Shown in pieces: positions 1-37,844 of a stretch of DNA of 64,000 nucleotides; position 1 is the first letter of the stretch; each line of letters opens with the position of its first letter. A program made the position numbers and the translations under genes. Source of the DNA: Macrostomum lignano (Eukaryota); assembly GCA_002269645.1 (NCBI GenBank), contig NIVC01000557.1, positions 1-64,000 on the forward strand. Reading direction: 5' to 3'. Below the pieces are notes generated by a model. The model was not told where the DNA came from. It made no database searches and worked only from the letters and a program-made list of their open reading frames with translations.

Positions 1-2997
1 CATAGACAGAGTTGTTGGCCAACTTAAAGAGGTTCTTGTCAAAGTCGTTGGTTGCTTTGGTCCTAAACTGGGTGTTCTTATCAATGTAGGGTTTCATCCA
101 CGCTTCCTCTGTAAATGTAAGAGCCCTGTGAACTTTGGTGACCCTGCAACCAAGTGAGATAAAATACTGAAGCAGTTTGTAATGGATTTTGTAACGTGTC
201 TTGTTGTTTAGATTCTGTGTTAGTTTCTCTGTATGTTCTTTTTCTGTTCCTGACAGGTGCCAAGTTCCATTATTATCATTGGGAGTTTCGATTATTTTCG
301 GGCACTTGATGTTCTCTGGGAAGGGTGGAAAGTCAGAGAAATAGTGTCGAAGCTCTGGTGGAATGTAAACATCAACTTCATAAATGGCAGCCAATGAAAA
401 GTCCCGTTTGAATTCTGATGAGGGTAACCATCGAAAATCTCTAACTGGAAGATCTTGACTCATCGCCCACCCGTAGAGATTATTAGCGTCCAAGTAAGTA
501 ATGTAGTTTGAGGGCTGCTCCTTATTGTAAGATTCAATGTAAATTGAGATCCCTCCTCGCTTTGACGATTCGACAAAATTGTACATGTCAATGTCTGTAA
601 GAAGTTCAATGTACCAATCTGGATCTTGATCCCATTTCATTTTAAGCAAAGATTCCCAGCTAGTGGCAGGCAGAGACACATAATGTGCTGGATCGAGGCC
701 ATATGCTGTGTACCAGGTGTATCTGAAGGTTTCAAACACATCAGCCAGCAGAAACACATCTGTGAAGAGGTAAAGCAGGTGATACTGGAAGAAGTTTTGA
801 CAATTAAAGTAATTATAGACATGCTTCGCGTGCTCATAGTCTTTGTCAGAGATTCCAGAGTCTGTTAGCTTTGAAAAGAACTTCTCCTGTGGTGGTAAAC
901 CTTCTTCAAATACGTGATACCCAGTAATATTTTCATAGGGGTAGAAGCCTTTCTTTCTTAAAAGTTTAAATGATTCATCACTGTTGTTAATTTTACTTGC
1001 AAACATCTTTGTATATGTACATTGTTCATCTTTTAGATTCTTGCTTAGTTCGTCTAGACTGGCAGCTAGAAATTGATATGAATCCTTCAGTCTTATTTTA
1101 CCTGTACCCGAATTATCCTGTTTAATATCAACACACTTAAACTTCTCCTTGTTCTCTGCGATGCAATCAAGGTGTATGTCTGGAATCATGCCGATTTTTT
1201 CAACTATTAAATGCATGTCATAGTTCTTTGCGTTGTGACAAAATATCGTTAGATCATGAATGTTCGATTTTAGCTTTAGATTACAGGTGTTATGCGCTGC
1301 ACCTCTAAATTTCCCAGTAAAGTGGCAGTGGTCCCTAACGGTGGGGTTTTTAATATTAGTGCAAGTTAATGTTTCCTGCAGATGTGGCAATGAGTTGCTG
1401 ATAGGAAATTGCTTTCATCCTCCTCAGTCATCATTATTGGAACAGGTTGAAGGGTGCTAATACTTTTGCAACTCTAACATTCTGGCAATAAACTGCTCCA
1501 CACACTGCTCTCCAAAGAAATAATTATACTCAACAAGTCCTTTTGTATTAATAAAGGCATATGCTACTGAATTGGGGACATGTTTTTGAGTTTGGAGGTG
1601 ATTGAGCATTCGAAATCAGCATATACAACAAATGGGAGCTTCTCCATCTTGTGATAGTTCTTAAACCGGAGATACTTCTCTTCAGCTGAAGGAAGAGAGC
1701 AGTTTGTCGGGTGATCCTCGCATGATAATTCATGCTCTGTTAGTTTTTCAAAGCGTTCAGGTCCACTGTAATGCTTAAGGCACAAGCGGCAGATGGCAAC
1801 AGCCTCGTGATGATTATTCAACTGCTTGTGAATGAGTCTTGAAAGATCTTTAATCCAAACATAGTGAGCCTCCTCTAGTAAATTACCAATCACTAGAAGA
1901 TCCACTTCAGTCCGCCTTTTCCCCTCAGGATCTAAAACGTCTTTGCTACATCTGACCGGTTGAACTTTCTCAGTTTTTTCACTCCACTCAAAGACTGTGA
2001 TTCTAATTTTGTTATTAAACACTTCTTCTAGCTTTGGGATCTGAGAGATCGCCAAGCCTCCTTTGTCAAACCTGATTCCCTTCTTTTCGCATTCGATGAG
2101 ATAGTAGTTGAAATAATTTTGATAATTTGAGGTTCTTTCGGGGTGGTGAGGACACTAAAAGTGCAGAAAGAACTGCCATAGAGCACAGCAATTGTCTTTA
2201 TTTTTAACATTTATGCAAGCTTTTTTGCCGGCTAGCTTATGCGGGAGCTCTATATAAGAGGAGGCTTTAAGTGGGTCATATTTCATGACCATGACAGTCG
2301 CTCTTTGAATCCCTCCTACGACCCATCCGGAACCTCTGGATGTAAACGCTTCAATTTTCTTAGTGACATCTTGAAGGAAAGGATCCAGTGTGTCTGTTGG
2401 GGTGAATGGCTTTGCCTTTGTTGTCATGTAATACTCGAGATGCTCAGTGGGTTTCGCAGGCATATAAAACGCAATCTTGAATGATATCTGTAGTTTAAAA
2501 GTCTTGCGTGTTTTGAGTGTGTGATCAACAACTGATTGGATGCTGTCTTTATAGTCGTAGATGTTTGCGGTGGTACCGTTGGTGTCGTTAATTGGGATTG
2601 TGTACTCTATGTAATGTTCTGTAAACTTCCTCTGTGCAAAATTAATCTCTTCAATGGCAAGCTCCGACTCTTTTAAATGGATTAATTGCTCTAATTTCTC
2701 TTGTTCCTGCTTATTTTGTGGGTACTTTGCTTTTTCACCAGTAAGAGTTTCATATTTGTTAACTAAGTTGCGACTCCTCTCTTGGTGTTCCTTTGCAGGA
2801 TTTTGCATAGGCGCATATTGGTTGGATTCTAATTGATTGATGATTTCCAACTGTTTTTCATAGCTTCCCAGGTGACCAGGGTCGGTGTTAAACTTTTGTT
2901 TACATGCTTCTCTTAGTAAATTACTTTTGTCTTGAAATGAGACGCCTTTTGAAAAATGTTTGTTGACTAAATCTTTTGCTGGATTAGCTTTTGGCAT
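1..2997 (-). pseudogene. polB: Protein-primed family B DNA polymerase (Polinton-type) with an endonuclease-VII-like zinc domain; frameshifted; C-terminus runs off the window
   Basis: Manual translation: GSGW, SSYIELP..KKACINVKNKDNCC, HYVWIKDLSRL, exonuclease YADFE, CHIC..VRDHCHFTGKFRGAAHNTCNL, HNAKNYD, RKKGFYPYE, motif A YLDANNLYGWAM (~450-500), motif B KLANNSVY(G) (1-24). Frame breaks near ~2170-2155, ~1590, ~1470 and ~1370; open from ~1350 to 1. Confidence 0.93.
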
Positions 2998-3122
2998 TTT
3001 TTTCTCTAAAATAAAAAAAAAATTTTGAGGGTGACCACCCTGATAGAAAAGTTGAACTGTTTCTACATTCTATAAGTAGCGCTAGGTTTATGAAGCTGGA
3101 TAAAGTGGGGTTTTAAACCTCA

Positions 3123-3578
3123 TCACATCCGCATTATTGTAAACCCAGCATTGTGCAGTGTCATGATAGCTTTGACAATGTCAGACTTGCTTATAGAATT
3201 TTCATGCTCACAATCATCACGATCATCACAATCGGGGCAGCCCTCTCCTGCCTTAATTGTTATACCTTTGTCTCTTGCAATCTTTTGCAATTCAAGCTGG
3301 TGGGCTCTATCATTACCAGCTTTAACAGCAGTTGCTACACCTCCAGCTACACCACCTGCGGCACTTACAGCGCCTGCAATAATCGGGATAAGAGCTGCTA
3401 ATGGTAGGATTCCTCCTAACTTTTCATCTGTGATGCTGTGTCTTTGCTCATTACACTGAACTATTTGCTGCACGGGATCGACTTTTACTTTGGCACCTTT
3501 TATTGATATAAGACCTGGTCTCTTTGATTCAATGATTTTATTGAGTTTATTGATGGTTCTGGTTTCAATCTTTGTCAT
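3123..3578 (-). CDS. Adenovirus pX-like small virion/membrane-active protein (putative)
   Basis: 151-aa intact ORF containing GG-ILPLAALIPIIAGAVSAAGGVAGGVATAV, similar to the adenovirus pX C-terminal segment (GG-ILPLLIPLIAAAIGAVPGIASVA); lies between polB and the integrase. Confidence 0.6.
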   Translation of the reverse strand: MTKIETRTINKLNKIIESKRPGLISIKGAKVKVDPVQQIVQCNEQRHSITDEKLGGILPLAALIPIIAGAVSAAGGVAGGVATAVKAGNDRAHQLELQKIARDKGITIKAGEGCPDCDDRDDCEHENSISKSDIVKAIMTLHNAGFTIMRM

Positions 3579-3595
3579 TTTTTTATTTTAATATT

Positions 3596-4633
3596 TTAAT
3601 TAATTTCTGTGTCAGCTGGTATCACTAGGAGTTCAGCTCTAGTGAATGACCGCGTGGGGGATTTAGGGTTAAAGGCTTGAGATAAAAAGTAATACTCTCC
3701 AGAGTCGGATGTAAAATGTCTGTCTATTTTATGTACATCAAGGCTGAAGTATGGATCTGTAGCTCTTCTTTTGGTGTCTTTCTCTAGCTCTCCAGGTAGA
3801 TATAAAAAGCGTAGAAACTCAGAGTTTGTCAGTATGTATGGTGATTCAACTCCTGGAAGCTGAGGGTAGTTCGAGGTGTGTTTTGTGTTGTGTGTGTTGT
3901 GTGGGGTTGTAGTATTGTTGTCTGTTCTTTGAGTTGCCTTAAGTTTGACAGTGTCTTGTTTAATTGCATGGGACGGTTTCAATCCAGTCATACGTGTGAC
4001 TTCATTGTTCAGTTGCTCTATAACAATGGGGAGTCTTTCTGTCCACTTGGTATAGTATTGCCCCGCACTCAGTTTGAGTTCTTGCGCTGTCTGTTTAGTG
4101 AATAGTCTCTTGGCTAGAGTTAGATTGAATCTTTCCACAAAAGCCTGGTCTCTGTGCAAGTTTGTTCTGCCATAGCGAATCTCTGTGTTTTTCTTTTCCA
4201 TAAGGGATTTCACTACACCCATGAATTCCTTACCCGGGTCGGTCATAAAGATTTGGGGGTATGTGAGCGGAGAGTTTTTATAAATATCTTGCAGTGCGCT
4301 GGCAACAACCTCTGACTTCTTCGTCTTGAGTGGGCGAGCTTCCTTATATCTGGAAGCAATGTCTATTACTGTGAGAGCATACTTGTAGCCTGAGTCATTG
4401 GGGAGAAACAAAAGATCTGCTTGGTGCGCTTCATTAGGTTTATAAATACTGAAATGGGGCCTTTCAAATTTTACTGGTGGGAAATAGACTTGAAAGACAG
4501 CCTGCTTAGAGAGCCATTTTTCTACTGTAGCTTTTGGTTCCTTACTCAGCTCCATGAGTTTACTAACGGCATTTTTGCCTACAAAGAAACCTTTGTCGCT
4601 GTAGTAGAGTTTTTTAAGTTTCTGATCTGTCAT
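3596..4633 (-). CDS. Retroviral-like (rve) DDE integrase of Polinton type
   Basis: 345-aa intact ORF: HQADLL (D), YALTVIDIASRY, MTDPGKEF (D), AFVERFNLTL (E; 34 residues between the second D and E), C-terminal PGELE..RRATDP; no chromodomain seen. Confidence 0.92.
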   Translation of the reverse strand: MTDQKLKKLYYSDKGFFVGKNAVSKLMELSKEPKATVEKWLSKQAVFQVYFPPVKFERPHFSIYKPNEAHQADLLFLPNDSGYKYALTVIDIASRYKEARPLKTKKSEVVASALQDIYKNSPLTYPQIFMTDPGKEFMGVVKSLMEKKNTEIRYGRTNLHRDQAFVERFNLTLAKRLFTKQTAQELKLSAGQYYTKWTERLPIVIEQLNNEVTRMTGLKPSHAIKQDTVKLKATQRTDNNTTTPHNTHNTKHTSNYPQLPGVESPYILTNSEFLRFLYLPGELEKDTKRRATDPYFSLDVHKIDRHFTSDSGEYYFLSQAFNPKSPTRSFTRAELLVIPADTEIN

Positions 4634-4663
4634 TTATTTAAAAAGAAAATTTTAAATAAAATA
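4633..4663. promoter_or_regulatory. Symmetric AT-rich spacer between divergent integrase and PLA2 start codons (candidate bidirectional promoter)
   Basis: 30 bp between the two ATGs; perfect 11-bp inverted repeat TTTATTTAAAA (4633-4643) / TTTTAAATAAA (4650-4660). Function is inferred. Confidence 0.4.
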
Positions 4664-5113
4664 ATGCAGCGCTCTGGTGGTAAGTTAGATTCACATGGAC
4701 TGATAGAAAAGCTTCCTCATCCGAACAAAGGCTGGACACTTCCCGGCTATAAATATTGCGGGCCTTTGAATCCACTTGAAATACAGCTAGATAAAAACAA
4801 TAATCCACATCCTGGGCATGAGCCTGTGAACGAGCTAGACTCTGTCTGCATGTGGCACGACGTTAAGTATAGAGATTTTCCTGAGGAGAAGAATCGCTGG
4901 GACAAAGAAATGCTTAAGAGACTAGACAATATAGGGGCTTCAAGCGGGTGGAAGGAATCGATCGCTCGGAAGCTAGTTAAAGCTGTTATTTTTAGTAAGG
5001 CAAAGTTGGGATTGGGAATGGACGTCGAGGGTGGGGTGGGTTTTGCATTGCACGCGCCAAGCAAAGAATTAGGAAGACTGCTGAAAGAGCTGGGGGTTGA
5101 GAGAGCAGAATGA
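4664..5113 (+). CDS. Parvovirus VP1u-type phospholipase A2 domain protein
   Basis: From ATG 4664 (149 aa): WTLPGYKYCGPLN (Ca-binding loop YxGP) and PVNELDSVCMWHDVKY (catalytic HDxxY). The 4421 start in the ORF track overlaps the integrase antisense and is unlikely. Confidence 0.85.
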   Translation: MQRSGGKLDSHGLIEKLPHPNKGWTLPGYKYCGPLNPLEIQLDKNNNPHPGHEPVNELDSVCMWHDVKYRDFPEEKNRWDKEMLKRLDNIGASSGWKESIARKLVKAVIFSKAKLGLGMDVEGGVGFALHAPSKELGRLLKELGVERAE

Positions 5114-5254
5114 TTCAAGTGGCTCTAGCGGTTGGAAAGAAAGCTTGTAAAGGGCGGCTATATTTTCCTTATGACATTTTGCCGTGTGGTGGGTGGGTGT
5201 TGAGCGGAACGGATATGGCAGCTGTTTATTGTCAACCATTATCCTATACTCAAT

Positions 5255-5335
5255 GTGCCGCAGATACTGCAGTATTCAATGTGAAAAGTATTCAATGTGA
5301 AAAGCAGCAGATACTGCAGTATTCAGTGTGAAAAG
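5255..5335. repeat. Short local duplication with two 12-bp palindromes ATACTGCAGTAT
   Basis: Palindrome at 5264-5275 and 5311-5322, plus repeated GTATTCA(A/G)TGTGAAAAG, in the convergent gap between PLA2 and the 211-aa ORF. Confidence 0.6.
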
Positions 5336-5394
5336 TTTTTTATGTGAAAAAGCAAGAGTCATAGCAGCAAGAATCATTAGTCACAGCAGATTAG

Positions 5395-6030
5395 TTAACC
5401 CAGGAGTGCACTGGCCTCTTCTTCTTCTAGCATCTTCAATGCCTCATCGGCATACTTAATTATTGAGCGCAGTCGATACAGCGAGATGCCACAACGATTT
5501 AGAATAGGGCGAGTGTTGCTGAGTCTTGCCACCCGGATTAAGAAATTCCCCCAAACCGGCTTAAATCGAAGCTTCATGGCAAACGCTCTATATTCCTCAG
5601 CAGACAGTACGAGCTTCATGCGGATCAGAATTTTTCCAGCCTTTATTCCGTATTGAAGTCCTTGATTTTGTAGTTCATTTATCATTTTTTCAATTTTGTT
5701 GAGCTCATTCACAACTTCTGCAATGTCGTGCCTCCCAGAGACAAATTCCACAGCCGGTTGTGGAATGACACGAGCAAGTGAATCACGGAGTAAGTTCGCA
5801 GCCTCATTGATGTGCTCCAACTTCTTTCGTTCGTCAATTCCTTCCACCCTACCAGTGATAGATGGTAGATTAATCACACACTTATTGAATCGCCTCGCAA
5901 CTTTGTTAAATTCCTCAATCCAATACTTCGATTGCTTCATGTCATCACTCTCGCACATCCTCCTTACTAAAGCAACCAAATCATCCTCAAATGTAGGCAT
6001 TGCTATGTCCATTGAAATTCTAAAACACAT
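5395..6030 (-). CDS. Hypothetical helical protein of the Polinton-like element
   Basis: 211-aa uninterrupted ORF of ordinary composition inside the element; the true start may be the second or third Met; no family recognised with confidence. Confidence 0.6.
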   Translation of the reverse strand: MCFRISMDIAMPTFEDDLVALVRRMCESDDMKQSKYWIEEFNKVARRFNKCVINLPSITGRVEGIDERKKLEHINEAANLLRDSLARVIPQPAVEFVSGRHDIAEVVNELNKIEKMINELQNQGLQYGIKAGKILIRMKLVLSAEEYRAFAMKLRFKPVWGNFLIRVARLSNTRPILNRCGISLYRLRSIIKYADEALKMLEEEEASALLG

Positions 6031-6386
6031 TGTAGGTGAAGTAAATGAAAAAAAAGCAGAACTAGTATAAGCAAATATATTAATAATTATTACCTTGCAG
6101 ATTTAAAAAATATTTAGCGCGTATATGGATACTGAATCGGGAATCAGTAGTTCTTTAGTAGGTAGAGCTCTGCTCAATACTAAGCTCTACTCTAAGATAT
6201 GGCTCTAAGAATTTTTCTCAGTGCATTATACAATAGATACAGTAGCTTCCGCGCGATCGACACTGACACGGTAACGTTGTTATCCCTGGGCGGCAAATGT
6301 GGCAGCAGCTGGTGGAACCGGTTAAAGACACAATACGCTCTCTTATACCCAGTAAGTATAAATCTATATTAACCCTGGAAGAACTC

Positions 6387-6637
6387 TGCCCTATACGATT
6401 TGCTGTACACGAAATGAGCGGGAGGAAAATCTATAGTTTACAACTCCAAGTCCAAGAGGCAAGGCCGTTCTAGCTTCTATTGTGCTACAATTGAGGCACT
6501 GGCAAGCAAGAGAGGGAGAGAGGGACGGGACGGGAGCCATGGACGGGACGGGGCTGCTAGAGTCTGGCAAGCGGGCAGAATTATAGGGCTATTGCCATAT
6601 ACAATTTGCTGTACACAAAATGAGCGGGAGGAAAATC
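6387..6637. repeat. Two 45-bp direct repeats (6387-6431, 6593-6637)
   Basis: TGCC(C/A)TATAC(G/A)ATTTGCTGTACAC(G/A)AAATGAGCGGGAGGAAAATC, 42/45 identical, in the non-coding gap between the two orphan ORFs. Confidence 0.8.
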
Positions 6638-6711
6638 AATATTCTTCTGGATCCGAATAATATCGATTTTGGATTGTGCGAGGATCTACAATATCTTGTT
6701 CTTCCTCTACC

Positions 6712-7107
6712 CTATTCATTTCCAACCGTGCAACTAGCTCGCACGTCGCGGAGGAAATTCTCGGGCGGATAGCCCTGCACACTCAGTGTCTGCTCTTTCC
6801 TCCTTATTTCCTCCTGTTTTATGTAAATATACTTGTGAATAAATGAACTTAGTATGTTTTTAGTAAACTTCAACTGCCTAATGATTTCTGCAAAGTTATA
6901 GTAGCTATCGTAATCTTTTACGTAGGTTACTCCATACTTATGAAACCAATGTCTTTGGAGAGCTTGATTAATATTAGGGACGATGATATCAACGCCGGGC
7001 CAATATTTTCTCATGTACTCGCTGCATTCCTTCTTGCATCGGTACTTACTCTTGTAATTAGGCTCGTGCGCTTTGTAATAAGAACCCGGAGAGACAACTG
7101 GAAACAT
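6712..7107 (-). CDS. Hypothetical protein (131 aa, Tyr/Lys-rich) of the Polinton-like element
   Basis: Intact ORF with the same A-rich ATG context (AAAA-ATG) as polB and the pX-like gene; no recognisable motif. Confidence 0.5.
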   Translation of the reverse strand: MFPVVSPGSYYKAHEPNYKSKYRCKKECSEYMRKYWPGVDIIVPNINQALQRHWFHKYGVTYVKDYDSYYNFAEIIRQLKFTKNILSSFIHKYIYIKQEEIRRKEQTLSVQGYPPENFLRDVRASCTVGNE

Positions 7108-7269
7108 TTTTAGAGAAAATTTAATTTTTTTTCAAAGGGTAAGGACCCTGGGTTAGGGGATTCAAAGTCTTTGGGATGCGTAGCGAATTGCGAATTGAAT
7201 GTGTGGAGAAGAATACAGATTGTTTTCTGATTGTTTCGAAGATGCTATGGGTGGATGTCAGTGGATTAT

Positions 7270-7660
7270 GTAGGACACCTGCTATGCTCTGATTCTGTCG
7301 TGGAGGAAGGAGGATAGGTTAGGAGGATTATGTTCGAAGTTTTGTAAGCGAGTGCGACACCTGTTATGCTCTGATTCAGGGATAATATGGATGGATTTAA
7401 TGGGATTATGTTCGAAGTTTTCGGAGCAACTAGGACACCTGTTATGCTCTGATTCTGTCAGGGATAATATGGATGGATTTAATGGGATTATGGAGGATGT
7501 TTTGTGAGCGAGTGCGACCCCCCTTTTTTCTGATTCTGTCGGGGATAATATGGATGGATTTAGGTGGATTATGGAGAACGTTTTCGGAGCGAGTGCGACC
7601 CCCCTTTTTTTCTGATTCTGTCAGGGATAATATGGATGGATTTAATGGGATTATGGAGGA
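7270..7660. repeat. Subterminal ~80-bp tandem repeats (about 5 copies), probably part of the Polinton terminal inverted repeat
   Basis: Core CTGATTCTGTCAGGGATAATATGGATGGATTTAATGGGATTATG starting at ~7289, 7371, 7449, 7530, 7612 (periods 78-82). Confidence 0.85.
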
Positions 7661-7702
7661 GGTGAAAAATTTTGTCCCAGAAGCCCCCTCATGCCTTCTA
7701 CT

Positions 7703-8270
7703 TGATTAGGTTACAGAGTTGAAACTTTACATTTTGACAGAGAATGAGTCAATGAAGAATTGTGTCAAGTTTGAAGTCAATCGATTTACGTAGAGCAAAC
7801 TTATGGCAGCTGAAAGTTAGTCAATTTTGAAACCCTTTTACACATCTGGGCCCAGATCGGGAAAGAGAGGCGGGCGGAGGTTGGGGTGGTTGCTAGGCTG
7901 AAAAAAACAGCCTAATTTTAAAAGTGCACAGCACCACTCAGGATTAACTTTGAGACTCGAAATTTTACATAATTGTGCCAAAATAGTTGAAGATTGTCTG
8001 TGTCAAATTTGAAGAGAATCGGTAAAAGTGGAGCGGCGCTATGGAGGATTTAGTGAAAAAATCGCGTATTTTGAGCAGTTTTTTGTACTTTTAGGTAGGA
8101 AGACTTGAGTCTAGGAAATTTAAAAGTAGCCTAAGACATTCTCCGTAGTAAGTTTAGGGTGGGTGTAAAGTTTGGTGTCATTTGGTTGAGCGGTTTGGGA
8201 GTCCATAGCGATCAAAATTGTCCACAGACAGACAGACACACAGACAGAGTTTTGATTTTTATAGTTAGAC
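7703..8270. mobile_element. Non-autonomous Helitron/Helentron-like (HINE/DINE-like) fragment
   Basis: Repeated TGTGTCAA(G/A)TTTGAAG..AATCG motifs, (ACAG)n near the end, and GCGGGCGGAGGTTGGGGTGG shared with the two downstream units. Classified by resemblance only. Confidence 0.35.
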
Positions 8271-9838
8271 GAGTGGAACTCCTCTGGAGGAGAAAGGGGA
8301 AGAACTCCCATCACCGGAATTCTGAAGGGGAAGAACTCCTATCAGCTGAAATTCCATGAATTGAATCCCATCTTCCAAATCATCTCCAAATCCTCTACAA
8401 TCTATCAACTCCCATCTCTCATCTCTTGCGCCCTGCGCTCTGATTTTTATTTTTACTCTCTTCTTTCTCCTCACTGATTACTCCTCTCTACACTTTAATC
8501 TCTCTCATCTCTGATCTTTCATCTCTCTTCTCCCTCCTCTCTCCCTTCTCTCGCTTCTCTCTCGCCTCTATTCCTACTCTTCTCGCTTATCTCTTCTCTC
8601 TCATATCTCATCTCTACTCCCTTATTTATCTCTTCTCCCTCGCCTTTCGTCTGTACCCTCTCCTGTCTACTCTCATATCTTCTCTCTTATCTCTCCCCTT
8701 TTCTCTCCTCTCTCATATCTCATCTCTACTCACTTATCTATCGTCTCCGCTCTACTTTCTCTCTTTCCTTTTCTCTCTTTCTGCTTTCATTTCTCGTATC
8801 TCTTATACGCTCTCACCCTCTCCTTTCTTATCTACCATCTTTCTTCCCTTTCTACTGCATCACCTGTCTCCTCTCCTCTCTTTTCTCTCCTCTCCATTCC
8901 CTCTTCTCTCCTCTTATCTCCCCTCATCTCTTCTCTAATCTCTCCTCTCTCCTCTCTCATATCTCTTCTCTACTCACTTATCTATTCTCTCTCCCCTTTT
9001 ACACTTTCCTATATGCTCTCACTCTCACTCTCTCCTTTCTTATATCCTGTTTTTTACACTCCTTTCTACCACCTGTCTCCTCTCGTTTCTCTCCTCTCTG
9101 CACTCTCATCTTTACCCTCTTCTTTCTCCTCACTACTTTCTTCTCTTGAATCTCTGATCTCTGATCTTTCATCTCTCTCCTCTCACCTCTCACCTCTCTT
9201 CTCTCTTTCCTCTCTTATCCCTCCTTTCTTTTCTCTCCTGTCTCCTCTCTGCTATCTCATATCTCCTCTCTCATATCCTCTCCCTTCATATCCTCTCCCT
9301 TCATCTCCTCTCTCCTCTTCTCTTTTCTCTTCCTTCGTTCCCGCCTTACTCCCCTCTTCTCTCCCATCTGTCATGTCTAATCTCTCGTCTCATTTCTACT
9401 CTGTTTTCTATCATCTCATCTCATCTCTCTTCTCTTTTCATTCTTCTCTTTACTCTCTTCTCTGACTGATTGAAGATGCCAAATCCATCAAGATCCTCTC
9501 CGCGAAGCAGAAAAATCCTGTCCGTGCAACTGAAAACCATCGAAATCCTCTCCGTGAAACTGGACTCCTTCGAAATCCTCTCCTTGAAACTTAAATCCAT
9601 CAAAATGGTCTCCATAAAACAGAAATCAATCATAAATTATCTCCGCGAAACAGAAATCCTCTCCGTGAAGCTGAACATCATCGAAATCCTCTCTTCGTAA
9701 AACTGAACACCATCGAAATCCTCTCCACGAAACAGAAATCCTCTCCGTCAAAATTAAAACATTGAAATCGTCTCTGCTAAACTGGACTCAATCGATCGAA
9801 TTTTTCCATCAAACAACTCAACTCTCCGGATTCATTGG

Positions 9839-9872
9839 TTAGGGTTAGGGTTAGGGTTAGAGTTAGGGTTAG
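9839..9872 (+). repeat. Interstitial telomere-type (TTAGGG)n, about 5 units
   Basis: TTAGGG x3, TTAGAG, TTAGGG, TTAG. Confidence 0.9.
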
Positions 9873-12800
9873 AACTACGCACAGGTTTGTGTTAAAAGGC
9901 ACTGATAAAAATATTGAACTAATTGAATCAATTCATTGCGCAACTGATTTCACAGTCAGTCAGTCAATCTAAATCAACCCTCCAATACACAGCAGCAGTG
10001 AGAAGTTGAACCCTCCCCCCAACTTTATCTATTACGTCTCGCAAAACTGATTACAATTTTTGCAAAAAGTTAAAAGTATGGGAATAGTTTTCCCAATGAA
10101 AAGCTTTTAGTTTTCATATATAAAGCAAACAACTTATATCCTCGAACTCTGCGTTGCAAGATCTTTCCAGCAATATAAGTTTCTCCTCTCAAAGTTTAAA
10201 ACTCGAGGAACAGTTAGCGTTTGAAATATACCGATTTCCCGACTGCTTGCTAGAGAAGCTCGCAATTCATTGAATTTCACTGCTAAGCTAATGCACAGGG
10301 ATGCCTATGGAGAAAAAAAGGCGCCAATAATAAAACCAATTGAATCTCGACACAGTCCTGATTCCTATCTATCTGTTTACACTGTACAACTGCTATGTAC
10401 ACTCAGCCCAAGCCCAACCCCCCGTTCTGGGGGAAGCATTAAATTTAACTGAACCCCCCCAACACGCGGGGGGTTTTATTTCCACTCGCACCCACCACCC
10501 CTCAATACACAGCGGCCCGCGGGCGGAGGTTGGGGTGGCTATTTTTACAAACTGGCTGCAGCCCCAGGCAGAGTGGCCAAAGAAGGTTATTGGGGGTTAA
10601 AAAAGCAGTTTTCTGCTTTTTTAGGGATGTTAAAATGTGAAAATTAAAAATTAAAATAGCCTAAAGCCTGCTCCGGAAAATTTGCAGTTTTCCCATATAA
10701 GTTTCGACGCTGACTTGGCAGAATTGTAGGAGTTCACTTACTACATACAGACAGAAACATCGCTAGAGTTTTAGTATATGTACGAGTGGAACTCCTCCTC
10801 CGGAGGAGAAAGGGGAAGAACTCCCATCACCGGAATTCCATTCCCTGAAATCCATCAGCTGAAACTCCATGACTTGAATCCCATCTTCCAAATCATCTCC
10901 AAATCCTCTGTAAAGCCTTTTTGCTCTCCTCTTTTCCCTCTCATCTCTACAGTGTAGTCTCTTATCTCTTCTCTCTAATCTGCTTTCCATCTCTAGTCTC
11001 TCATCTCTGCTCTCTCTTCTTTGCTATCTTATATCTAGTCTCTCCTCTCTCTCCTCTCATCTCTACTCCCTTATGTATCTCTTCTCCCTCGTCTTTCGTC
11101 TGTACCCTCTCCTGTCTCTTGTCTCCTCTCTTCTCTCATATCTCTCCTCTTCACTTCTGTCTTCTGTCTCCTCTCTTCACTCTTATCTCTCCCTCTTCTC
11201 TCCTCTCTCATATGTCATCTCTACTCACTTATCTATCATCTCTCTTTACCCTCTCTCTCCCCTCTGCTCTCATTTCTCATATATCATATACGCTCTCACA
11301 CTCTACTTTCTTGTCTCCTATCTTTCTTTCCTCCTTTCCACTATCCCCTGTCTCTTCTCTCTTTTCTCCTCTCCTTTTTCCTTTCATCTTCTCCCCTCTC
11401 TTCTCTAATCTCTAATCTCTTCTCTCTTATGTTCTCACGCATCTCTTCTCATCGCATCTCTCATCTCTCCTCTCCTCACTACTTTCCTCTCTTAACTCTC
11501 TCATCTCTGATCTTCCATTTCTCTCCTCTCTCCTCTCTCCTCTCTCCTCTCTCCTCTCGCTTCTCTCTCCTCTCTCTCATCTCATCTCTACTCCCTTATT
11601 TACCTCTTCTCCCTCGTCTTTCGTCTGTACCCTCTCCTGTCTCTTGTCTCTCCTCTCATACATGTATCTCTCCTCTTCACTTCTGTCTCCTGTCTCCTCT
11701 CTTCTTTCTTATCTCTCCCTTCTTCTCTCCTCTCTCATTTACTCTCTCATGTCTTTACTCTCTTATCTTTCTTCTCTAACCTCTATCTCTTCTTTTTCTC
11801 TCTCCTCTCTGCTCCTATTTTTCATATCTCCTATATGCTCTCGCCCTTTCCTTTCTTATCTCCAATCTTTCTTCCTTCCTTTCTACTATCTCTTATCTTC
11901 TCTCTTCTCTCTTTTCTATCCTTTCTATTCTCTCTTCTCTCCTCTCATTTTTACCTTCTCTAATCTCTAATCTCTTCTCTCCTATTTTCTCACTCTCTTT
12001 TCTCATCGCATCTCTCATCTCTCCTCTCTGCACTCTTATCTTTACCCTCTTCTTTCTCCTTACTGCTTATTTCTCATAACTCTCACCACATTTTTTCTGA
12101 TCTTTCTTCTCTCTCCCTTCTCCTCTCTCTTCTCTCTCCTCTCTCTCTTCTCATCTCTACTCCCTTTATCTATCTCTTCTCCCTCGTCTTTCGTCTCTAC
12201 TTTCTCCTCTCTCCTCTCCTCTCTCATCTCTCATCTGTACTCTTTTTCTTTCTTCTCTACTCTCTCCTCTTCTATTTCCTCTGTACGCTCTTATCCCTCC
12301 TCTCTTCTCTCTCCTCTTATCTCTCCTGTCTCCTCTTTGCTATCTCATATCTCCCCTCTCATCTCCTCTCTCCTCTTCTCTTCTCTCTCCTTCGTTCCCG
12401 CCTTACTCCCCTCTTCTCTCCGATCTGTCATGTCTAATCTCTCCACTCATTTCTACTCTCTTTTCTACCCACTCATCTCTCTACTCTTTTCATTCTTGTC
12501 TTTACTCTCTTCTCTGACTGATTGAAGATGCCAAATCCATCAAGATCCTCTCCGCGAAGCAGAAATCCTGTCCGTGCAACTGAAAACCATCGAAATCCTC
12601 TCCGTGAAACTGGACTCCTTCGAAATCCTCTTAAATCCATCAAAATCGTCTCCATAAAACAGAAATCAATCATAAATTATCTCCGCGAAACAGAAATCCT
12701 CTCCATGAAGCTGAACATCATCGAAATCCTCTCCGTGAAGCTGAACATCATCGAAATCCTCTCCGTGAAACTGAACATCATCGAAATCCTTTCCACGAAA

Positions 12801-12993
12801 CTGAACACCATCGAAATCCTCTCCACGAAACTGAACACCATCGAAATCCTCTCCACGAAACTGAACACCATCGAAATCCTCTCCACGAAACAGAAATCCT
12901 CTTCGTCAAAATTAAAACATTGAAATCGTCTCCACTAAACTGGACTCAATCGAATTTTTTCCGTCAAACAACTCAACTCTCCGGATTCATTGG

Positions 12994-13021
12994 TTAGGGT
13001 TAGGGTTAGGGTTAGGGTTAG
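12994..13021 (+). repeat. Interstitial telomere-type (TTAGGG)4, copy B
   Basis: TTAGGG x4 + TTAG at the homologous position of copy B. Confidence 0.9.
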
Positions 13022-14978
13022 AACTACGCACAGGTTTGTGTTAAAAGGCACTGATAAAAATATTGAACTAATTGAATCAATTCATTGCGCAACTGATTTC
13101 ACAGTCAGTCAGTCAATCTAAATCAACCCTCCAATACACAGCAGCAGTGAGAAGTTGAACCCTCACCCCAACTTTATCTATTACGTCTCGCAAAACTGAT
13201 TACAATTTTTGCAAAAAGTTAAAAGTATGGGAATAGTTTTCCCAATGAAAAGCTTTTAGTTTTCATATTTAAAGCATACAACTTATATCCTCGAACTCTG
13301 CGTTGCAAGATCTTTCCAGCAATATAAGTTTCTCCTCTCAAAGTTTAAAACTCGAGGAACAGTTAGCGTTTGAAATTTACCGATTTCCCGACTGCTTGCT
13401 AGAGAAGCTTGCAATTCATTGAATTTCACTGCTAAGCTAATACACAGGGCTGCCTATGGAGAAAAAAAGGCGCCAATAATAAAACCAATTGAATCTCGAC
13501 ACAGTCCTGATTCCTATCTATCTGTTTACACTGTACAACTGCTATGTACACTCAGCCCAAGCCCAACCCCCCGTTCTGGGGGAAGCATTAAATTTAACTG
13601 AACCCCCCCAACACGCGGGAGGTTTTATTTCCACTCGCACCCACCACCCCTCAATACACAGCGGCCCGCGGGCGGAGGTTGGGGTGGCTATTTTTACAAA
13701 CTGGCTGCAGCCCCAGGCAGAGTGGCCAAAGAAGGTTATTGGGGGTTAAAAAAGCAGTTTTCTGCTTTTTTAGGGATGTTAAAATTGGAAAATTAAAAAT
13801 TAAAATAGCCTAAAGCCTGCTCCGGAAAATTTGCAGTTTTCCCATATAAGTTTCAACGCTGACTTGGCAGAATTGTAGGAGTTCACTTGCTACATACAGA
13901 CAGACAGACAGACAGACAAACATCGCGTCGGTTTTAGTATTAGGAGAGATTAAGATTAGATATTGTGGTAGGGCGGTCTACCACTGGAATGAACAACAAC
14001 AGACCTGCAGCGCGGACAAGGTGGAGTCGTGGACTACCATTGTTCCAGTGATTTATGACTGATGTCAATTTTCTTCAATGTTTGTTCCTTTGCCTGTTCC
14101 CCCATTTGTCCCTGCCTTTGCTCCTTTGTCTGCACCCTTCGTTGCTCCCTCCTATGGTCTTTGCTGTTTTATCGCTTCTAGCGCCCAGGTTTTCCATTTT
14201 CCCATAGGGTGTCCCTTTCCTTGTCCCATCCATTGTCCCACCCCCTGGGTTAACTGTGCCATTTTATATATATTAACATTCGTCTATAACCAATTTTTTG
14301 TGTGTTTTTCCTTTCCTTCTACTTTGTTGTCATCATTGTTTTTGCGTTTTTGTTGCATTTGTTTGCTCTCCCCTTGACAGACAAGCTCTATTCCTTAATT
14401 TGTTTAACCTTATTGCTCTAGTGTTTGACGCATATTAATTTTCTTGCTCACCCTTGGCATGGCTGATTCGTCACACATTCCTCAGCCTAAAGTTTGACAA
14501 TAATCATCTAGTATTTGATTTGTAGTAATTAAATTTTCTGGTGCAAAATACTATAAATAATAACCAGTCAATTAATATCTTATTTAGTTGTTCTTAATCG
14601 AAGCATTTAGTCTCTATTGAGTCATTTGCCTGCAGGGCATAAAATAACCAATCAGTCTCAATTCAAAGAAAGCTCTGAGACCCTTAACGTTCCATAATAC
14701 AAAATTATAGTGGTGGCAGCGCTACTTTACTACTGATAGTAACAAACTGAACACATCAATAGATCACGACATTCACGGTGTCTAAGGACCCAATTTGAAT
14801 GACCATGCCATTAAAAGACTGCTCAACTACAATTACAATTACCCTCCCTCCGGAATTGAGGGCCTGGCAAATGGAGTATCAAGGAGAAGTTAAACATATC
14901 TGTTTACAAAATTTTCCGGCTTTACAAGTGCCGAGACAATGCAGGCGGCAATTCAAACATGAAATTTGCCCTACCTCA

Positions 14979-18900: not shown

Positions 18901-20039
18901 ACATTTAGGGGGGTGTTTCATAGAGCACTTGTCAGAGTTACAATTAGTGTGACAAATGAATAGTGAATAGCGATTTTTGTTATATGAGTTTTTGACAAGT
19001 GACAAGCGAGTATGACAAGTTCCAGGTACAATCGGTTTGTTTCAAAGACATAGATTCTTGAAGAGTAAGCAGCGCCTGATTTTCGACAAGCTTGAGTAGT
19101 CCCGCAAGATTTAATTGTCACACTTTTACCTATCAGATGTCGATTCACATGGCAACATGTTCGATTCGGACTCGGACTCCTCGGACGAAGGTATATCTTT
19201 ACCGTAAATATCTCGCTCTCTCTCTCTCTCTCGCTCTGACGAAGAATATTCAATATTCGAAAAATCGGCATATTTCACTAAACTGACTTTCATCTGTCCT
19301 TTTTACCGAGTCAGTGCCTGAGATTGGAGGTGCCCTCCTGATCTATCTCTCCCTCTCTCTCTCTCCCCGTCTCTCACCTGCTCGCTTTCGCATCGTTTCT
19401 CCACGAATAAAAAGCTCTAAAAACAATTCGCGTCCCGACAGAATTGCCCACGAAAATGATTGATGTATAATACTCGTAGTGTGGAGCGAATGCATCAACA
19501 AATTGCCTTTAATGATCAGCCATTGCAGTTTGACTTACAGTCTTCTAATCAAGTGGTGGACCCGTCGTCTAACTTTTTGGTTTTAGAGTAGCTTTTTCCT
19601 GATCCTTTCTGGCAGAGCAATATTGGTTGATTAACCCCCGCAGCCAATCCGCGCGCATTTACAAGAAAGACATTTTATAATGTAAGTCGATAACAAGGAC
19701 AACTCAAGTATATAGTAGGACGCAATACTCGCGAATCGTGTAATTTTTATTGGAGGCCTGCATGGTCTTCACATATATGTAATTCTCGACTAGTTGCACG
19801 TAGAAAGCTAATTCTTTCGGTGTTAGGTCCAGAATCCTAGGCTTATGTACGAAGAACTTTATACGGCTTACGGGCCTCCAAAAAAATTTCCACGAAAGCT
19901 TAGTGTCACGTCCTATATATAACGTAACTTCAGTTGTCCTTGGTCGATAAATAATAAAGATTGCTTCTGGGCGTAGGTTACCACAGCTACGGAGATCGAG
20001 GACCCAAGACAGAAGCAGTTTGCCCAAATCCAACTCCAG

Positions 20040-20586
20040 ATGTATTGCCAAAATGCTTCTCTAGCCCTTCTGCTGCTGCTGCTGCTGACCGCCAGTCCGC
20101 CAGCGGCTGGTATCACCGTCATAATTTTGAGATCCGAGAGCTCATCGACACCTGCCAGCATGAAGCCTGTGGCTGGCAGAAGCATCCTGGACTATTCTTT
20201 GAAGTGTGCTCAAACAGACGGCTGCATCGGATTCTCCTGGCTGCAGAGTCTGTGCCAGCTGTTCAACTTGAGCGCTTTCGCTGGCACCTGGCTGAGCTCG
20301 CCGCCCTGCGAGGTCTTCAAGCTGATGGAAGGGCCGGCAGCTGCCACCAGTAAGGACCGCTCCGGCTTTCGTGGCCTACCTCACCATCTACAACCGGATC
20401 ATGTATCCTGAATGGCTCAAAAAGTTCAACCTGCTGGTTGGTGGCGTTGAGTGCAACCGAGTGGACCTGACAGAGCCGTTCTCCATCGCCAACTTAACCT
20501 GCAACGCTTTCGGCAGCGCTGTTCGAGTTCTCTACCAGCAGAGCGATCTGCTTATTCTCAGCGAAGTTGAGATCTACGACTACTGA
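20040..20586 (+). pseudogene. Secreted PAN/apple-like + partial F-type-lectin-like protein, split over two frames
   Basis: Frame 1: hydrophobic signal peptide, then LKCAQTDGCIGFSWLQSLCQLF (PAN-like Cys pattern). Frame 2: FVAYLTIYNR..LKKFNLLVGGVEC...LILSEVEIY, like the C-terminal half of the fucolectin/FTP fold. No clean intron joins them. Confidence 0.55.
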
Positions 20587-20780
20587 GACGTCAAGCTCGA
20601 GTCGAATGAATAACTGATCGTTTTTCTCTCAAAGCTGCAAAACCTAACTTGGTTGTGTGATCCTCCACTTTGACTTACTTTGACTTAGCTGCAGGGCGGT
20701 CCGAAGACGCAGCGGGGAGGCGAGCGTCGCCCATTCCGCTAATCCCTGAAAGACCCGCACAGGCTAGGGCGCGGGGCCGG

Positions 20781-23700
20781 TCAGGGAGGTCTGCCGGTCC
20801 TGTCTGCAGCGTTGTCTTCGGTGGGGAAGACGGAGGCTCGCTTGGTGGCCCGGAGGAACCGGATGAGCCGTGGGATGTTCTCGGGCCGGCAAACATCGTC
20901 CAGGGACGGGTTGGGCCCGAGGTGGTTGAGCCGGTCTCGGTCTCGGTTGTGGCGGGGATGGGGGCCAGGGGCACGGGGCCAAGGGGCGAGCCGGAACAGC
21001 CTGCCTTAGCGAGGAAGTCGGCGAGCTCGTTACCTTTGAAGCCGGCGTGTCCTGGGATCCACGTAAGCCGGACGGTGTTCCTCCGAGCCAGCTTGTTGAG
21101 CTGCCCGATACAGTCGCGGACTGTTCGGGAGTTCGTAGTGGTGTGACACAGGGCCTGCAAAGCGGCCTGGCTGTCAGAGTAGAAGAAAATTCTGTTCTTG
21201 AAGTCCCTGCTGTGGAGCTCAGCTGCACAGGAGCTGATGGCAAGGACTTCGTTCTTGAAGACGCTGGAGAGTCTGCCAGTGTGTTGGGCGTGAGTAGCGA
21301 TCACGCGGCCGTTGATAAGGATACAGACTCCAAAGCCGGATAAACCGTCTTTGGAGGATCCGTCAGTAAAGCAGTGAACCTCCTAAGGGACCCAGCTGTC
21401 GTTGGCGTTCTCCCTAGAGATAGTGACCTTGAAGCGTTGGTAGAGATTGAGGGAGCGCGGCTCAGCGTCCGAAAGGACAGCCGCATTCCCACTCTCCTCC
21501 AGAACTTTAAGGCACAGGTCAGAGTGCGGCAGGAGCTTGCGCTTCGCCATCGCTCTTTGTGGCTTGAAGCTAACGCCAGCCTCGATGAGCCGGCGGGTGG
21601 TTTTTGCAGCCTCGCGACGGACAAAGACAACGACGGAGGCAAAGAAAGGCGTTGAGGCCGTCAAAGGGAGCAGAGAGCGGGGCATTCAGGATCATGCGGC
21701 ACGCACGTCCCTGCACCTTTTTGAGGGCTTTGTGGCAGGTTTTAATCTGCAAGGCGCTGGTCCAGACCAGGCCGGCGTAAGTGACGGCCGGTCGGACCAT
21801 TGCGGTATAGATCCACCAGAGCCACTTCGGGGTGAGGCCCCAGGTGGTGCCGACGGCTCTGCGCAGCTGCGCAAGAATCGCGAGGGCTTTTTTGGTTTTG
21901 GCCTGGACGTGGGTGGACCAGCTCAGCCGGTGGTCCAGCGTAACGCCAAGGCACTTTGTTTGCTTGCAGGATGGGATTTCCACCCCGTAAAGCTTTAGTG
22001 GGCGAATACGCCAGTTAACCCTGCTGGTGAACATGACCGCGACAGTTTTGGTCTCAGAGAGCCTGAGGCCGCACCTGTCCGCCCATTGTTCAGCAGAGCG
22101 AATAAAGTTTTGCAGAAGGTCCCTAAGGGTTTCAGTTGACGGACCGGATGCCACGGCTGTGACATCATCGGCGTAACCAACCTTAAGGATGGGGTCAAGA
22201 TGGCTGTCCTGGAGGAGCTCATCGATGACCATGTTCCAGAGAACTTGAGAGAGGACACCGCCCTGGGGGCTGCCTTTGCAGACGCTTACCGTCCGTTGGT
22301 GGCCCAACAGGTGTGCGGTGGCAGTACGGTGGCTGATCATATACATGATCCACCGGGTGAGGTGCGAGTGGGTTCCTCTAGCACGTAGAGCTCTGTCGAA
22401 AACCTCAAAGAGGACATTGTCGAAGGCTCCAACAATGTCGAGGAAGACAGCGAGAGCGTAGCCATTGCCAAGAACGGCTTTCTCCAGCATGTCGACCAAG
22501 ACATGAAGCGCGCTCTCCGTGGACCTGCCTGCCCGAAAGGCGTGCTGGTTCTCACTGAACGGCTTGTTCTTCAGTTCCACAGAGAGGAGGCGCCAGAGCA
22601 CCAGTCTCTCTAACAGCTTCACCAGTGAGGAGGTGAGGCTAATTGGTCTGAAGGATTTATGGACCGGTAGTCAGTCCTGTCGGCCGGGCTTGGGGATAAA
22701 AACCACCTTGGCCTCGGTCCAGGGTTTCGGAACAAAGCCGAGAGCAATGCAAGCTTTCAGAAGCCGGCAAAGGTTCCGCAGGAAACCGGTGCATTTCACC
22801 GCCTCTCGCAGGAAGGCTGGCACAACGCCGTCCGATCCTGGGGATTTGAAGGGTTTGAAGGAGGAGACTGCTTTAGTAACGCGGTCCTCCGTGATGATTG
22901 AGTCAGCCAGTACGTGTCCGCCCACTGAGTGGTCAGGGGGGTCGGGCCTGGCTGGTTCGTTCGGGAAAAACGCTGTTAGCATCGCTTCCAGTGTTTCTCC
23001 TGGGTTCTCAGTGAGCGAGCCGTCGGCTCTCTTGACTGAGGAGAGTTTGGACATTTTGTCCAGGGTGAGGGCTTTAACGATACTTGAGGTGGGGCGGGAG
23101 CCCTCAAGTTCCTCACAGTATTCGCGCCACTTGTTGGTTTTGGCGTTCCTAACCTGCCTCTTCAACTCGTGGATAGAGTTCAGGTAGGCGGTTTGGTCGG
23201 CCGGGTTTTTAGTTTTTGGGCCCTGCGGTGAAGCCTTTTGGCTCTGCGACGGAGGTCGCCAAGCTGCGGGTTCCACCATGGGGCCGACTGTTTGCCTTTA
23301 TATGCCTTTAGTGGGCATGAGGCTTCGAAGGCAGCAGTGAGCGAGTCCGTAAGTGCGGCCGCAAAATCATCTGCTTCCTCGCAGGTGTTGATGGAGACTG
23401 GAGCGCTAGTGCAACGATAGTTCTCCTCCAGGGCAAGCCTGAAGGCGGTCCAGTCGGTATTCCTAGCATTCCGTTTCCAGTAAAGCTAGCCTGCGTTTCG
23501 AGCGCTGGCCAGCGTGAAAGAGATGAATTACTTGTGATCGGAGAGGGACGCCTCAGGAAACACCCGCCACTCCCTAGTGCTCTGGAAGAGCCTGGGCGTG
23601 GCGAGGGTGGCATCCAACACCTCCGATCGGCGTCCGTTATTGAAGGTAGGGGTACTACCCGAGTTACAGAACTCAAGGGTTGTAGTAGCAATATAAGCCA

Positions 23701-24194: not shown

Positions 24195-24196
24195 GT

Positions 24197-35338: not shown

Positions 35339-35485
35339 TCAGATTTCTGAGGTACCAATTCCATATATCTGAGGGTATTTACTCTGGCCTGAGCCAAGTA
35401 GCAACAGCTGCTGCTGCTGGGGCTGCTGACTGCCACTGACGCCAGTGCGGACAGGTGTGGCCAGTTTCTGATGCATCGGGTGCAC

Positions 35486-35531
<46 letters not shown>

Positions 35532-37405: not shown

Positions 37406-37844
37406 TAAACAACTTTATCTCTTAAAAATTGCAACTCTCCTTCTAGATCTTGTAGCGTCTTGAAGCTTGATTCTGGTTTGGCGTAGATTTTATTTTCAAA
37501 CAAGTCCGACTTTTTAAAACCCCTCCTCACCCTCTCGTTTAAAGGGGGACGAGAGAGAGAGAGAGGAGAGCAGACCAACGGTGGTTGGCTCGGGTCGCTC
37601 TTTGACTTCTCGCTGGTGGGTGGCCGGGGTTGACGTGACTGAACACTTCTTGAGCCTGTGGCCAATAAGGCCTCATTGAAAAGAGTTTATAAAATTCTTC
37701 TTTCTTATCTATTTTTACACACCACACACACACACATGGACCGCTTGCTTTAATTTTGGTGGGCACTAAAAGAGGCTTTTAATTTTTTCTAAACCAAGCT
37801 TAACTAGTTTTGTATGTTTATTGTAATGTTGGCTTAATTGCTCC

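Follow-up and report, generated by a model that had tools for sequence, protein, structure and literature searches.

Parvovirus-type phospholipase A2 (PLA2) and adenovirus pX-like domains are described accessory domains of adintoviruses, whose integrases carry a chromodomain (PMC8502044). In the Beta group the membrane-active genes are GasderminX and Cupiennin (Starrett et al. 2021, PMC8502044). The published end motif of Polintons is (ACT)2, and 96% of vertebrate Maverick loci are degraded (PMC8097293). Jeong et al. 2023 (PMC10748475) counted 748 copies of integrase-linked protein-primed polymerase (pPolB) among Platyhelminthes, spread over 8 of 73 genomes (Supplementary Table 2), and assigned these flatworm polymerases to pPolB1 of group 2.

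We analysed a window of 64,000 nucleotides, the first 7702 of which are very likely the right arm of an adintovirus-type Polinton provirus (class Polintoviricetes), integrated in an invertebrate germ line and now defective. The arm is a divergent addition to a well-known group that is widespread in animals, flatworms included, and not a new type of element. It encodes a protein-primed PolB, an adenovirus-pX-like protein, a DDE integrase, a parvovirus-type PLA2 and two further open reading frames (ORFs) (Table 1). The integrase, PLA2, pX and 211-aa frames are open and polB is broken. The initial annotation had proposed an integrated Polinton/adintovirus-like element, which the gene identities, their linkage in relatives and a family-type terminus support well, and the pX-like, integrase and PLA2 assignments made then were confirmed by matches to PF05829, PF00665 and PF08398. 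Three plus-strand ORFs (6853-7110, 5110-5331 and 5723-6070) had negative codon scores and were discarded as shadows, and an Rfam scan of the window gave no match.

Table 1. Features of the Polinton arm and the evidence for each.
Feature	Position	Strand	Evidence
pPolB third large piece, 471 aa, running off the window edge	1..1414 (open frame 1414-2)	-	PF03175, PF02945, phrog_423, motifs
pPolB broken zone	1415..1615	-	52-aa piece 1615-1460, then three in-frame stops
pPolB second piece, 196 aa	1567..2154	-	tblastn with intact relatives; motifs
pPolB N-terminal piece, 280 aa	2155..2997	-	ended by in-frame stop at 2157-2155
pX-like virion core precursor, 151 aa, intact	3123..3578	-	PF05829 Adeno_PX
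Retrovirus-like DDE integrase, 345 aa, intact	3596..4633	-	PF00665; alignment; tree
Stand-alone parvovirus-type phospholipase A2, 149 aa, intact	4664..5113	+	PF08398, E 3e-14
All-helical conserved protein, 211 aa; start likelier at 6012 (205 aa)	5395..6030	-	homologues; AlphaFold2
Non-coding 49-bp direct repeat, 92% identical	6387..6641 (copies 6387-6435, 6593-6641)		repeat search
131-aa ORF, candidate decayed Ulp1/adenain-family maturation protease	6712..7107	-	Atlas leads; alignment; motif
Subterminal array, about four to five degenerate 82-bp units	7271..7663		tandem-repeat core 7325-7660, reaching back to about 7271
Element terminus (very probable)	7663..7702		TCTACT end; register with related elements' ends

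The DDE triad of the integrase (D73, D132, E167) is invariant across 13 aligned integrases, and the protein falls in a seven-member clade with 99/100 support. It contains an in-frame, low-complexity, microsatellite-like insertion of about 17 residues. We fetched 14 related loci with the integrase. PolB of the window's class adjoins the integrase in seven of the 14, contrary to the refuting condition set initially, that polB and integrase would group with unrelated classes of element. Stand-alone PLA2 was present in three (L006-L008), which also carry a protease motif, so the set of genes is not peculiar to this arm; these three are not independent, because all come from one assembly. The protease of L007 matched ASFV pS273R (E 0.0013), and another locus, L001, carries an A32-type ATPase.

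The genes could in principle have come together by chance, as a host PLA2, the integrase of a separate transposon and a plasmid-type polB, or as a contaminant joined to host DNA. The arm indeed departs from the fetched relatives in gene order: there, PLA2 and integrase point the same way, with polB convergent to them. Module swaps do exist, as in L003, whose integrase is of the same class but whose PolB is only 26% identical. Against this, relatives carry these gene classes in linkage, codon usage is common to the element's genes and unlike that of the host frizzled and GPCR genes in the window, and the junction to host repeats lies exactly at the family-type end. The compact array described initially, with AT-rich spacers of 17-125 bp, also stands (125 bp, 67% AT; 17 bp, 100% AT; 30 bp, 97% AT). 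Chance juxtaposition is thus largely refuted and we regard it as highly improbable.

The polymerase gene had been read as a single ORF. It is a pseudogene, which was missed, split by stops and a frame change into four pieces (2997-2158, 2154-1567, 1615-1460 and 1414-2). The piece at the window edge matched PF03175 on the minus strand over 2-1414 (E 1.8e-18; 67 bits on a partial gene, above the cut-off), with further matches to PF02945 (E 0.018) and to the endonuclease VII family phrog_423 (E 9e-4). It holds an EndoVII/HNH-type insert, ExoII, ExoIII, PolA and the start of the PolB motifs; the C-terminus with motif C lies to the left of base 1, outside the window. The second piece has a putative vOTU His strand, a zinc-finger-like CxxC and ExoI, with a frame change near 1582-1603, and the broken zone has in-frame stops at 1459-1457, 1426-1424 and 1417-1415. 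Following the domain naming of PMC11161782, the N-terminal piece would contain the terminal-protein domain and the vOTU Cys motif. The putative vOTU Cys and His motifs at the PolB N-terminus are common to 89 and 99 of 120 homologues, respectively. The vOTU name would follow from the shape of the motifs together with PMC11161782 and PMC8502044.

PolB is 40-46% identical to its best 120 matches and at most 46% identical to any. It belongs to a widespread animal class of EndoVII-bearing polymerases, which is probably the Beta class of Starrett, or group I. The PolB tree gave no supported placement of the window sequence, which forms a long branch among EndoVII-bearing animal PolBs. An undescribed lineage had been suggested initially; this is right only in a weak sense, as the branch is divergent but has relatives by the thousand (PolB, 6628 of 8000 scored candidates; integrase, 639 of 2215).

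If the breaks in polB were sequencing or assembly errors, the provirus could be intact or even active. All ten of the pPolB motifs checked survive across the pieces (each is present in 84-117 of 120 homologues), the integrase, PLA2, pX and 211-aa ORF are all open, and the polB lesions cluster at 2157-1415, leaving 1414-2 open. However, there are at least three separate lesions, in-frame stops among them, and an 11-residue gap near 540 is seen against six of six intact homologues. The insertion in the integrase and a candidate protease with no Cys at the aligned site also speak for decay, and we consider an intact provirus quite unlikely.

No capsid, penton or ATPase was recognised in 1-7702 by Pfam and PHROGs scans, the remainder of the element being to the left of base 1. 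The initial annotation had counted the protease as absent from the window too, and this part of its claim is now doubtful given the 131-aa ORF described below. Since none of the capsid, penton and ATPase genes, the left TIR and the target-site duplication is present in the window, that this copy represents a virus is an assumption. The missing genes, and an intact integrase and terminus beside a broken polB, would also be expected of a capsid-less, non-autonomous derivative that kept its integrase and ends, was mobilised in trans and has no virion module further left. However, the virion-associated pX and PLA2 are still open frames, and relatives with the same integrase class have ATPase and protease genes. 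On a rough estimate, three lesions in 3 kb of polB with none in the other 2.5 kb is an outcome that chance does not make unlikely (about 8%). A derivative of this kind therefore seems unlikely, and a defective provirus remains our preferred reading.

The pX-like ORF matched PF05829 over residues 54-84 (E 8e-7; 29.2 bits against a curated cut-off of 25). The protein has a Gly-Gly followed by a hydrophobic helix, and a Cys-rich acidic tail; it aligned neither with the Gly-Gly ORF of L006 nor with any PDB sequence. In the PLA2 both the calcium-loop YxGP (31) and the catalytic HD (65-66) are present, and alignment to AAV VP1 was weak (E 0.014). No pX domain is fused to it, PF08398 being the only match of this ORF at E up to 1. 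A longer PLA2 frame starting at 4454 was rejected, as it runs into the integrase and shows homology only beyond 4664.

The two remaining ORFs had been called unrecognised orphans. They are coding-like, each being the only positive-scoring frame of six under a model of codon usage learned from the genes of the element itself, but orphans they are not: the 211-aa ORF has eight homologues (best E 1.5e-27), a small family, and the 131-aa ORF has a protease lead. A word-index homologue search with the 211-aa ORF gave no match, and scans of Pfam, PHROGs, NCBIfam and PDB sequences gave no convincing one, the best being phrog_6146 (unknown function; two of nine members). It had no phage match, and its Atlas matches were unnamed clusters. 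AlphaFold2 predicted an all-helical protein with a pLDDT of 80.7 from the alignment, whereas a single-sequence fold, at 39, was of no use. The alignment-based model had no Foldseek match at E <= 0.001 and no VIA match at Z >= 8; the best VIA values, Z 6.5 and 6.0, are within the noise range for helical models. Resemblances of the model to the Raf1 alpha domain (Z 5.9, rmsd 4.5, 92 aligned) and to Spo0J (Z 5.2, rmsd 5.4, 98 aligned) may serve as leads. No scan bore out a likeness to DUF3102 helix-turn-helix proteins.

The probable identity of the 131-aa ORF, as a lead only, is that of a decayed Ulp1/adenain-type protease; a core gene may therefore be inside the window. Its Atlas leads to PF02902 scored 0.86-0.87, under 0.9, with a recognition of 2294 against a threshold of 2300, and all ten of its best named matches were in one family or clan. 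A His-Trp and a Tyr-Asp-Ser motif are present and there is no Cys at the aligned catalytic position. The HW...YDS pattern occurred in 26 of 100,000 shuffles, a rate that overstates its significance because the pattern was written after the ORF had been seen. Local profiles made with the L006, L007, L008 and L013 proteases gave no significant match, 43/1000 and 91/1000 shuffles scoring as high, and searches of Pfam, PHROGs, the PDB and plasmids returned either nothing or spurious matches. An ORF of at least 131 aa appeared in 8 of 1000 simulations of the region.

Position 7702 is very probably the true terminus of the element. The end, TCTACT, matches (ACT)2 at five of six bases, and the bases just inside it line up with those of related elements' ends. 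A profile made from the ends of three related elements ranked 7702 first of 127,922 positions, with a score of 14.9 against 7.4 for the next; the adjoining offsets were all negative and each held-out end came first in its own locus. A four-end profile then found two more ends, in L002 and L008. Terminal-type repeats had been noted initially, and the 82-bp array beside this family-type end bears them out. The array is probably inside the TIR; it had no match at E < 0.01 in the rest of the window, and kinship with the host 30-bp repeats was not significant. The 49-bp direct repeat is possibly regulatory.

Elements with the window's PolB and integrase class have a subterminal motif at a fixed distance, with a G run at 16-18 and TTCTG at 21-25 from the end, in AGT-type and AC-type ends alike. 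It could be a core replication origin not yet described, comparable to the adenovirus core origin, or an integrase-binding site. The motif allows the ends of this Polinton class to be located from one arm, and points to a testable cis-element.

From what is known of the family, the integrase would insert a linear, TIR-bounded genome, which pPolB would copy by protein priming from its ends, making use of the end repeat and, probably, of conserved bases some 11-29 nt inward. The terminal protein, vOTU, exonuclease with its EndoVII/HNH insert and polymerase domains of pPolB would all belong to this proposed replication. Capsid and ATPase genes, presumably to the left of base 1, would supply the particles, cleavage by the Ulp1/adenain protease would fall at Gly-Gly sites of the pX-like core precursor, and PLA2 may help membrane escape during entry. 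The present copy is no longer able to make its own polymerase, and possibly not its protease either; it is therefore a fairly young fossil, or could be mobile only with the aid of a helper. A flatworm host, as proposed initially, is plausible. Should it be a laboratory species that has intact sister copies, it would be a tractable system in which to ask whether Polintons form particles.

Among the fetched loci, L006-L008 resemble the arm in the class of their PolB (about 40% identical) and of their integrase (about 50%) and in having a stand-alone PLA2 (40-43%); they also have a protease, for which the arm has a candidate. They differ in integrase clade and gene order. The Stylophora pistillata gene model P0129 combines PLA2, rve, chromo and EndoVII-PolB pieces in one model; its integrase is of another, chromodomain-bearing type and its gene order is different. 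The window's 211-aa and 131-aa ORFs were not found in L006-L008 or P0129.

The arm shares with Beta adintoviruses, or group-I Polintons, a divergent, probably OTU-bearing PolB with only a moderate PF03175 score, an rve integrase and an AGT/ACT-type end (PMC8502044, PMC8097293). Homologues of its PolB occur in cnidarians, molluscs, echinoderms, a sponge and snakes. In place of GasderminX and Cupiennin, neither of which was recognised in the half or so of the element that lies in the window, it has PLA2 and a separate pX-like gene, and its gene order differs too, integrase, pX and polB lying head to tail; the comparison with Beta is by description only. Like the Alpha adintoviruses (Mayetiola class), it has a parvovirus-type PLA2 and an adenovirus pX-like domain beside integrase and PolB. 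In Alpha, however, PLA2X is one protein, whereas here PLA2 and pX are separate and on opposite strands, with the integrase between them. A Pfam scan of the integrase found no chromodomain, unlike the adintovirus integrases of PMC8502044. The polymerase is probably of another group than the flatworm pPolB1 of Jeong et al., from which it is set apart by description.

Our tentative proposal, which is perhaps rather less likely to be right than wrong, is an undescribed genus-level branch of adintoviruses with a Beta-type polymerase, an Alpha-like entry kit split into separate PLA2 and pX genes, a small helical family of its own and the subterminal motif as a possible origin or integrase-binding site. 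A Beta polymerase with an Alpha-like kit would reverse the pattern of the chimeras that Starrett et al. give in their main text, and the split PLA2 and pX alongside this polymerase class suggest module shuffling beyond the Alpha/Beta scheme.

Bases 1-7702 of the window read, with high confidence, as a defective integrated Polinton arm. Only the right arm lies here; the capsid and ATPase genes, the left TIR and the target duplication would lie outside the window. Six-frame translation and Pfam searches recovered four of the genes named in the initial annotation (PolB, pX-like, integrase and PLA2). PolB, pX and integrase share the minus strand in a head-to-tail series, and PLA2 diverges from them on the plus strand. 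The spacers, originally described as AT-rich and 17-125 bp long, measure 125, 17 and 30 bp, with AT contents of 67, 100 and 97%, respectively. The integrase keeps residues D73, D132 and E167, and PLA2 keeps its YxGP and HD motifs. A codon model trained on the element's own genes chose the correct frame for each of its 6 training pieces when held out; it scored the two unnamed ORFs positively in their own frame only and the host frizzled and GPCR genes negatively.

Features of the Polinton arm and its flank (matches for PolB, pX-like ORF, integrase and PLA2 from six-frame translation and Pfam)
Feature	Position	Strand	Match or character
PolB piece	2-1414	-	PF03175, E 1.8e-18
pX-like ORF	3123-3578	-	PF05829, 29.2 bits against a cut-off of 25
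Integrase	3596-4633	-	PF00665
PLA2	4664-5113	+	PF08398, E 3e-14
211-aa ORF	5395-6030	-	alternative start 6012
131-aa ORF	6712-7107	-	
LINE	20678-25696	-	ORF1, endonuclease, reverse transcriptase, RNase H, across several frames
Frizzled receptor	35342-37414	-	single open frame, poly-Ala tract, GC3 0.71
Rhodopsin-family GPCR	59276-60631	+	single open frame, 7TM_GPCR_Srw match

If the element behaves as its family does, the DDE integrase would insert it and the genome would be copied from its ends by protein priming, while a protease would mature pX at Gly-Gly and PLA2 would assist entry. The integrase start (4631-4636, minus strand) reads TAAATG, the poxvirus late-promoter motif; the other starts are A-rich without it, and its occurrence is probably chance. 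A 74-nt intron-like stretch (GT...TTTTAG; 6020-6093, minus strand) precedes the 6012 start of the 211-aa ORF, and TTTTAG stands 8 nt upstream of the polB start (3004-3012, minus strand); either might mark a 5' intron or a trans-splice acceptor. Between PLA2 and the 211-aa ORF a 47-bp segment is duplicated, with a 16-bp repeat nested inside it (5260-5350).

The possibility that these genes had come together by chance, raised initially, does not survive comparison with 14 related loci (L001-L014), the matches from a scan of genome contigs with the integrase alignment. PolB of the window's class adjoins integrase in 7 of the 14 (L001, L002, L005, L006, L007, L008 and L014), and stand-alone PLA2 is present in three (L006-L008, all from one assembly). 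L006-L008 also encode a cysteine protease motif, the protease of L007 matching ASFV pS273R, and L001 carries an A32-type ATPase. PLA2, rve, chromo and EndoVII-PolB pieces also occur inside one Stylophora pistillata gene model (P0129). The linkage of PolB, integrase and PLA2 is neither chance nor unique to the window. L003 (10974-14807) shares its integrase class with L001 and has similar neighbouring genes, but its PolB and that of the window are only 26% identical, a polymerase swap. The record titles of all 14 loci are GTDB bacterial MAGs; as the content is eukaryotic mobile DNA, we take the Polinton-like sequences to be, most likely, host contamination.

Aligned to intact relatives, polB extends from 2997 to beyond base 1. 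It is interrupted by stop codons at 2157-2155 and at three places between 1459 and 1415, and its frame changes near 1582-1603; a gap of 11 residues lies near 540 relative to all six homologues compared. The breaks might instead, less probably, be assembly errors. As read from the sequence, polB is a pseudogene, and its decay looks recent. All ten polB motifs checked survive across the pieces, each found in 84-117 of 120 homologues, and they include Cys and His motifs and an EndoVII/HNH-type insert. The Cys and His motifs are presumably those of a vOTU domain. Such a domain has been described for Polinton pPolBs (PMC11161782).

The arm terminates in TCTACT, agreeing at 5 of 6 bases with (ACT)2, the end motif of vertebrate Mavericks (PMC8097293); as CTACT occurs about once per kb, this agreement alone is weak. 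A 40-base profile was built from the ends of L001, which has a TIR pair (275 and 19682), and of L014 (10992) and L004 (1905), with one end each. Position 7702 ranked first of 127,922 with this three-end profile (score 14.9, next best 7.4), and all 14 neighbouring offsets were negative. When held out, each of the four ends (window, L001, L014 and L004) was top-ranked in its own source. L001 and L014 share one assembly, and a profile from L001 and L004 alone still puts 7702 first. We regard 7702 as very probably a true element end. The four-end profile found apparent ends in L002 (6960) and L008 (6009) as well, with no clear match in the other nine loci. These six elements (7663-7702 in the window) have common subterminal bases at a fixed distance from the terminus, a G run near 16-19 and TTCTG near 21-25 from the end, constant in AGT-type and AC-type ends though the outermost repeat differs. 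They are a candidate core origin or integrase site; among the literature matches listed (12 of 496) none was relevant to this motif, which is weak evidence of absence.

The flank contains TTAGGG runs, and none of TTAGG or TTAGGC; 39% of it is tandem repeat. Together with the frizzled frame, the GPCR and the LINE, this agrees with an animal host outside the arthropods and nematodes. In Macrostomum lignano simple and tandem repeats are reported to make up 15% of the genome and trans-splicing to be frequent (PMC5730564), which is compatible with this species as host, not diagnostic. A host repeat (7703-8270) lies immediately outside the terminus, its GACA microsatellite and T-run end resembling copies at 10743 and 13892. 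The repeat resembles non-autonomous Helitron-type elements. A unit containing 30-bp repeats, an internal TTAGGG run and CT-rich tracts is duplicated at about 3.15 kb spacing (9354-10800 and 12406-13930; up to 99% identity over 300 bp). The ORF at 19977-20408 (plus strand) has a signal-peptide-like start and a Cys spacing that resembles a PAN/apple domain, with no Pfam match at E 0.1.

For the two ORFs first called orphans that label does not hold: a search of 1.84 billion cluster representatives found 8 homologues of the 211-aa ORF, and the 131-aa ORF has an Ulp1 lead. Modelled with its homologues, the 211-aa protein gave a confident all-helical fold (pLDDT 80.7), for which four fold searches returned no match above noise. 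Weak Spo0J and Raf1-alpha matches at residues 97-210 hint that it might be a DNA-binding regulator of helix-turn-helix type, our best guess though a doubtful one. For the 131-aa ORF, Ulp1 (Peptidase_C48) clusters appeared in the Atlas at 0.86-0.87, as a lead only. Its His-Trp followed by Tyr-Asp-Ser can be aligned to the L006, L007 and L013 proteases. Composed after the ORF was inspected, this pattern matched a single one of 76 window segments; the four protease ORFs were its only matches in 943 other sequences. Profile tests fell short of significance, 43 and 91 of 1000 shuffles scoring as high, and Cys is absent at the aligned catalytic position. We lean slightly towards reading this ORF as a maturation protease of the element that has decayed.

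Of 2215 integrase candidates, 639 are homologues; among the 120 matches listed the top one is 68% identical, five more 58-62% and the rest 44-49%. A tree was built from 27 of 131 sequences after removal of near-copies at ≥80%; in it the window and these top six matches form a clade (support 99/100). Of 8000 candidates scored, 6628 match the PolB piece, with 46% identity in the best case; those listed have a median identity to each other of 55%, and the named ones come from corals, an anemone, a crinoid, molluscs, a sponge and snakes. A quick PolB tree (19 of 124 sequences) put the window on a long branch, without supported placement, and decay of polB may lengthen that branch.

Among the adintovirus classes of Starrett et al. 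(PMC8502044), PLA2X, a fusion of PLA2 to pX, is typical of Alpha virion modules, and Alpha PolB combined with Beta modules is reported. The window, in contrast to Alpha PLA2X, has PLA2 and pX as separate genes. Its PolB is probably of Beta class, so that separate PLA2 and pX probably stand beside a Beta-class PolB; the supplement to that paper may already hold such cases. Our literature search found nothing on topic for Polintons or Mavericks in Macrostomum. Polintons in flatworms are already known, with 748 integrase-linked pPolB1 reported in 8 of 73 flatworm genomes (Jeong et al., PMC10748475), and the element is a new, divergent relative within a known kind.
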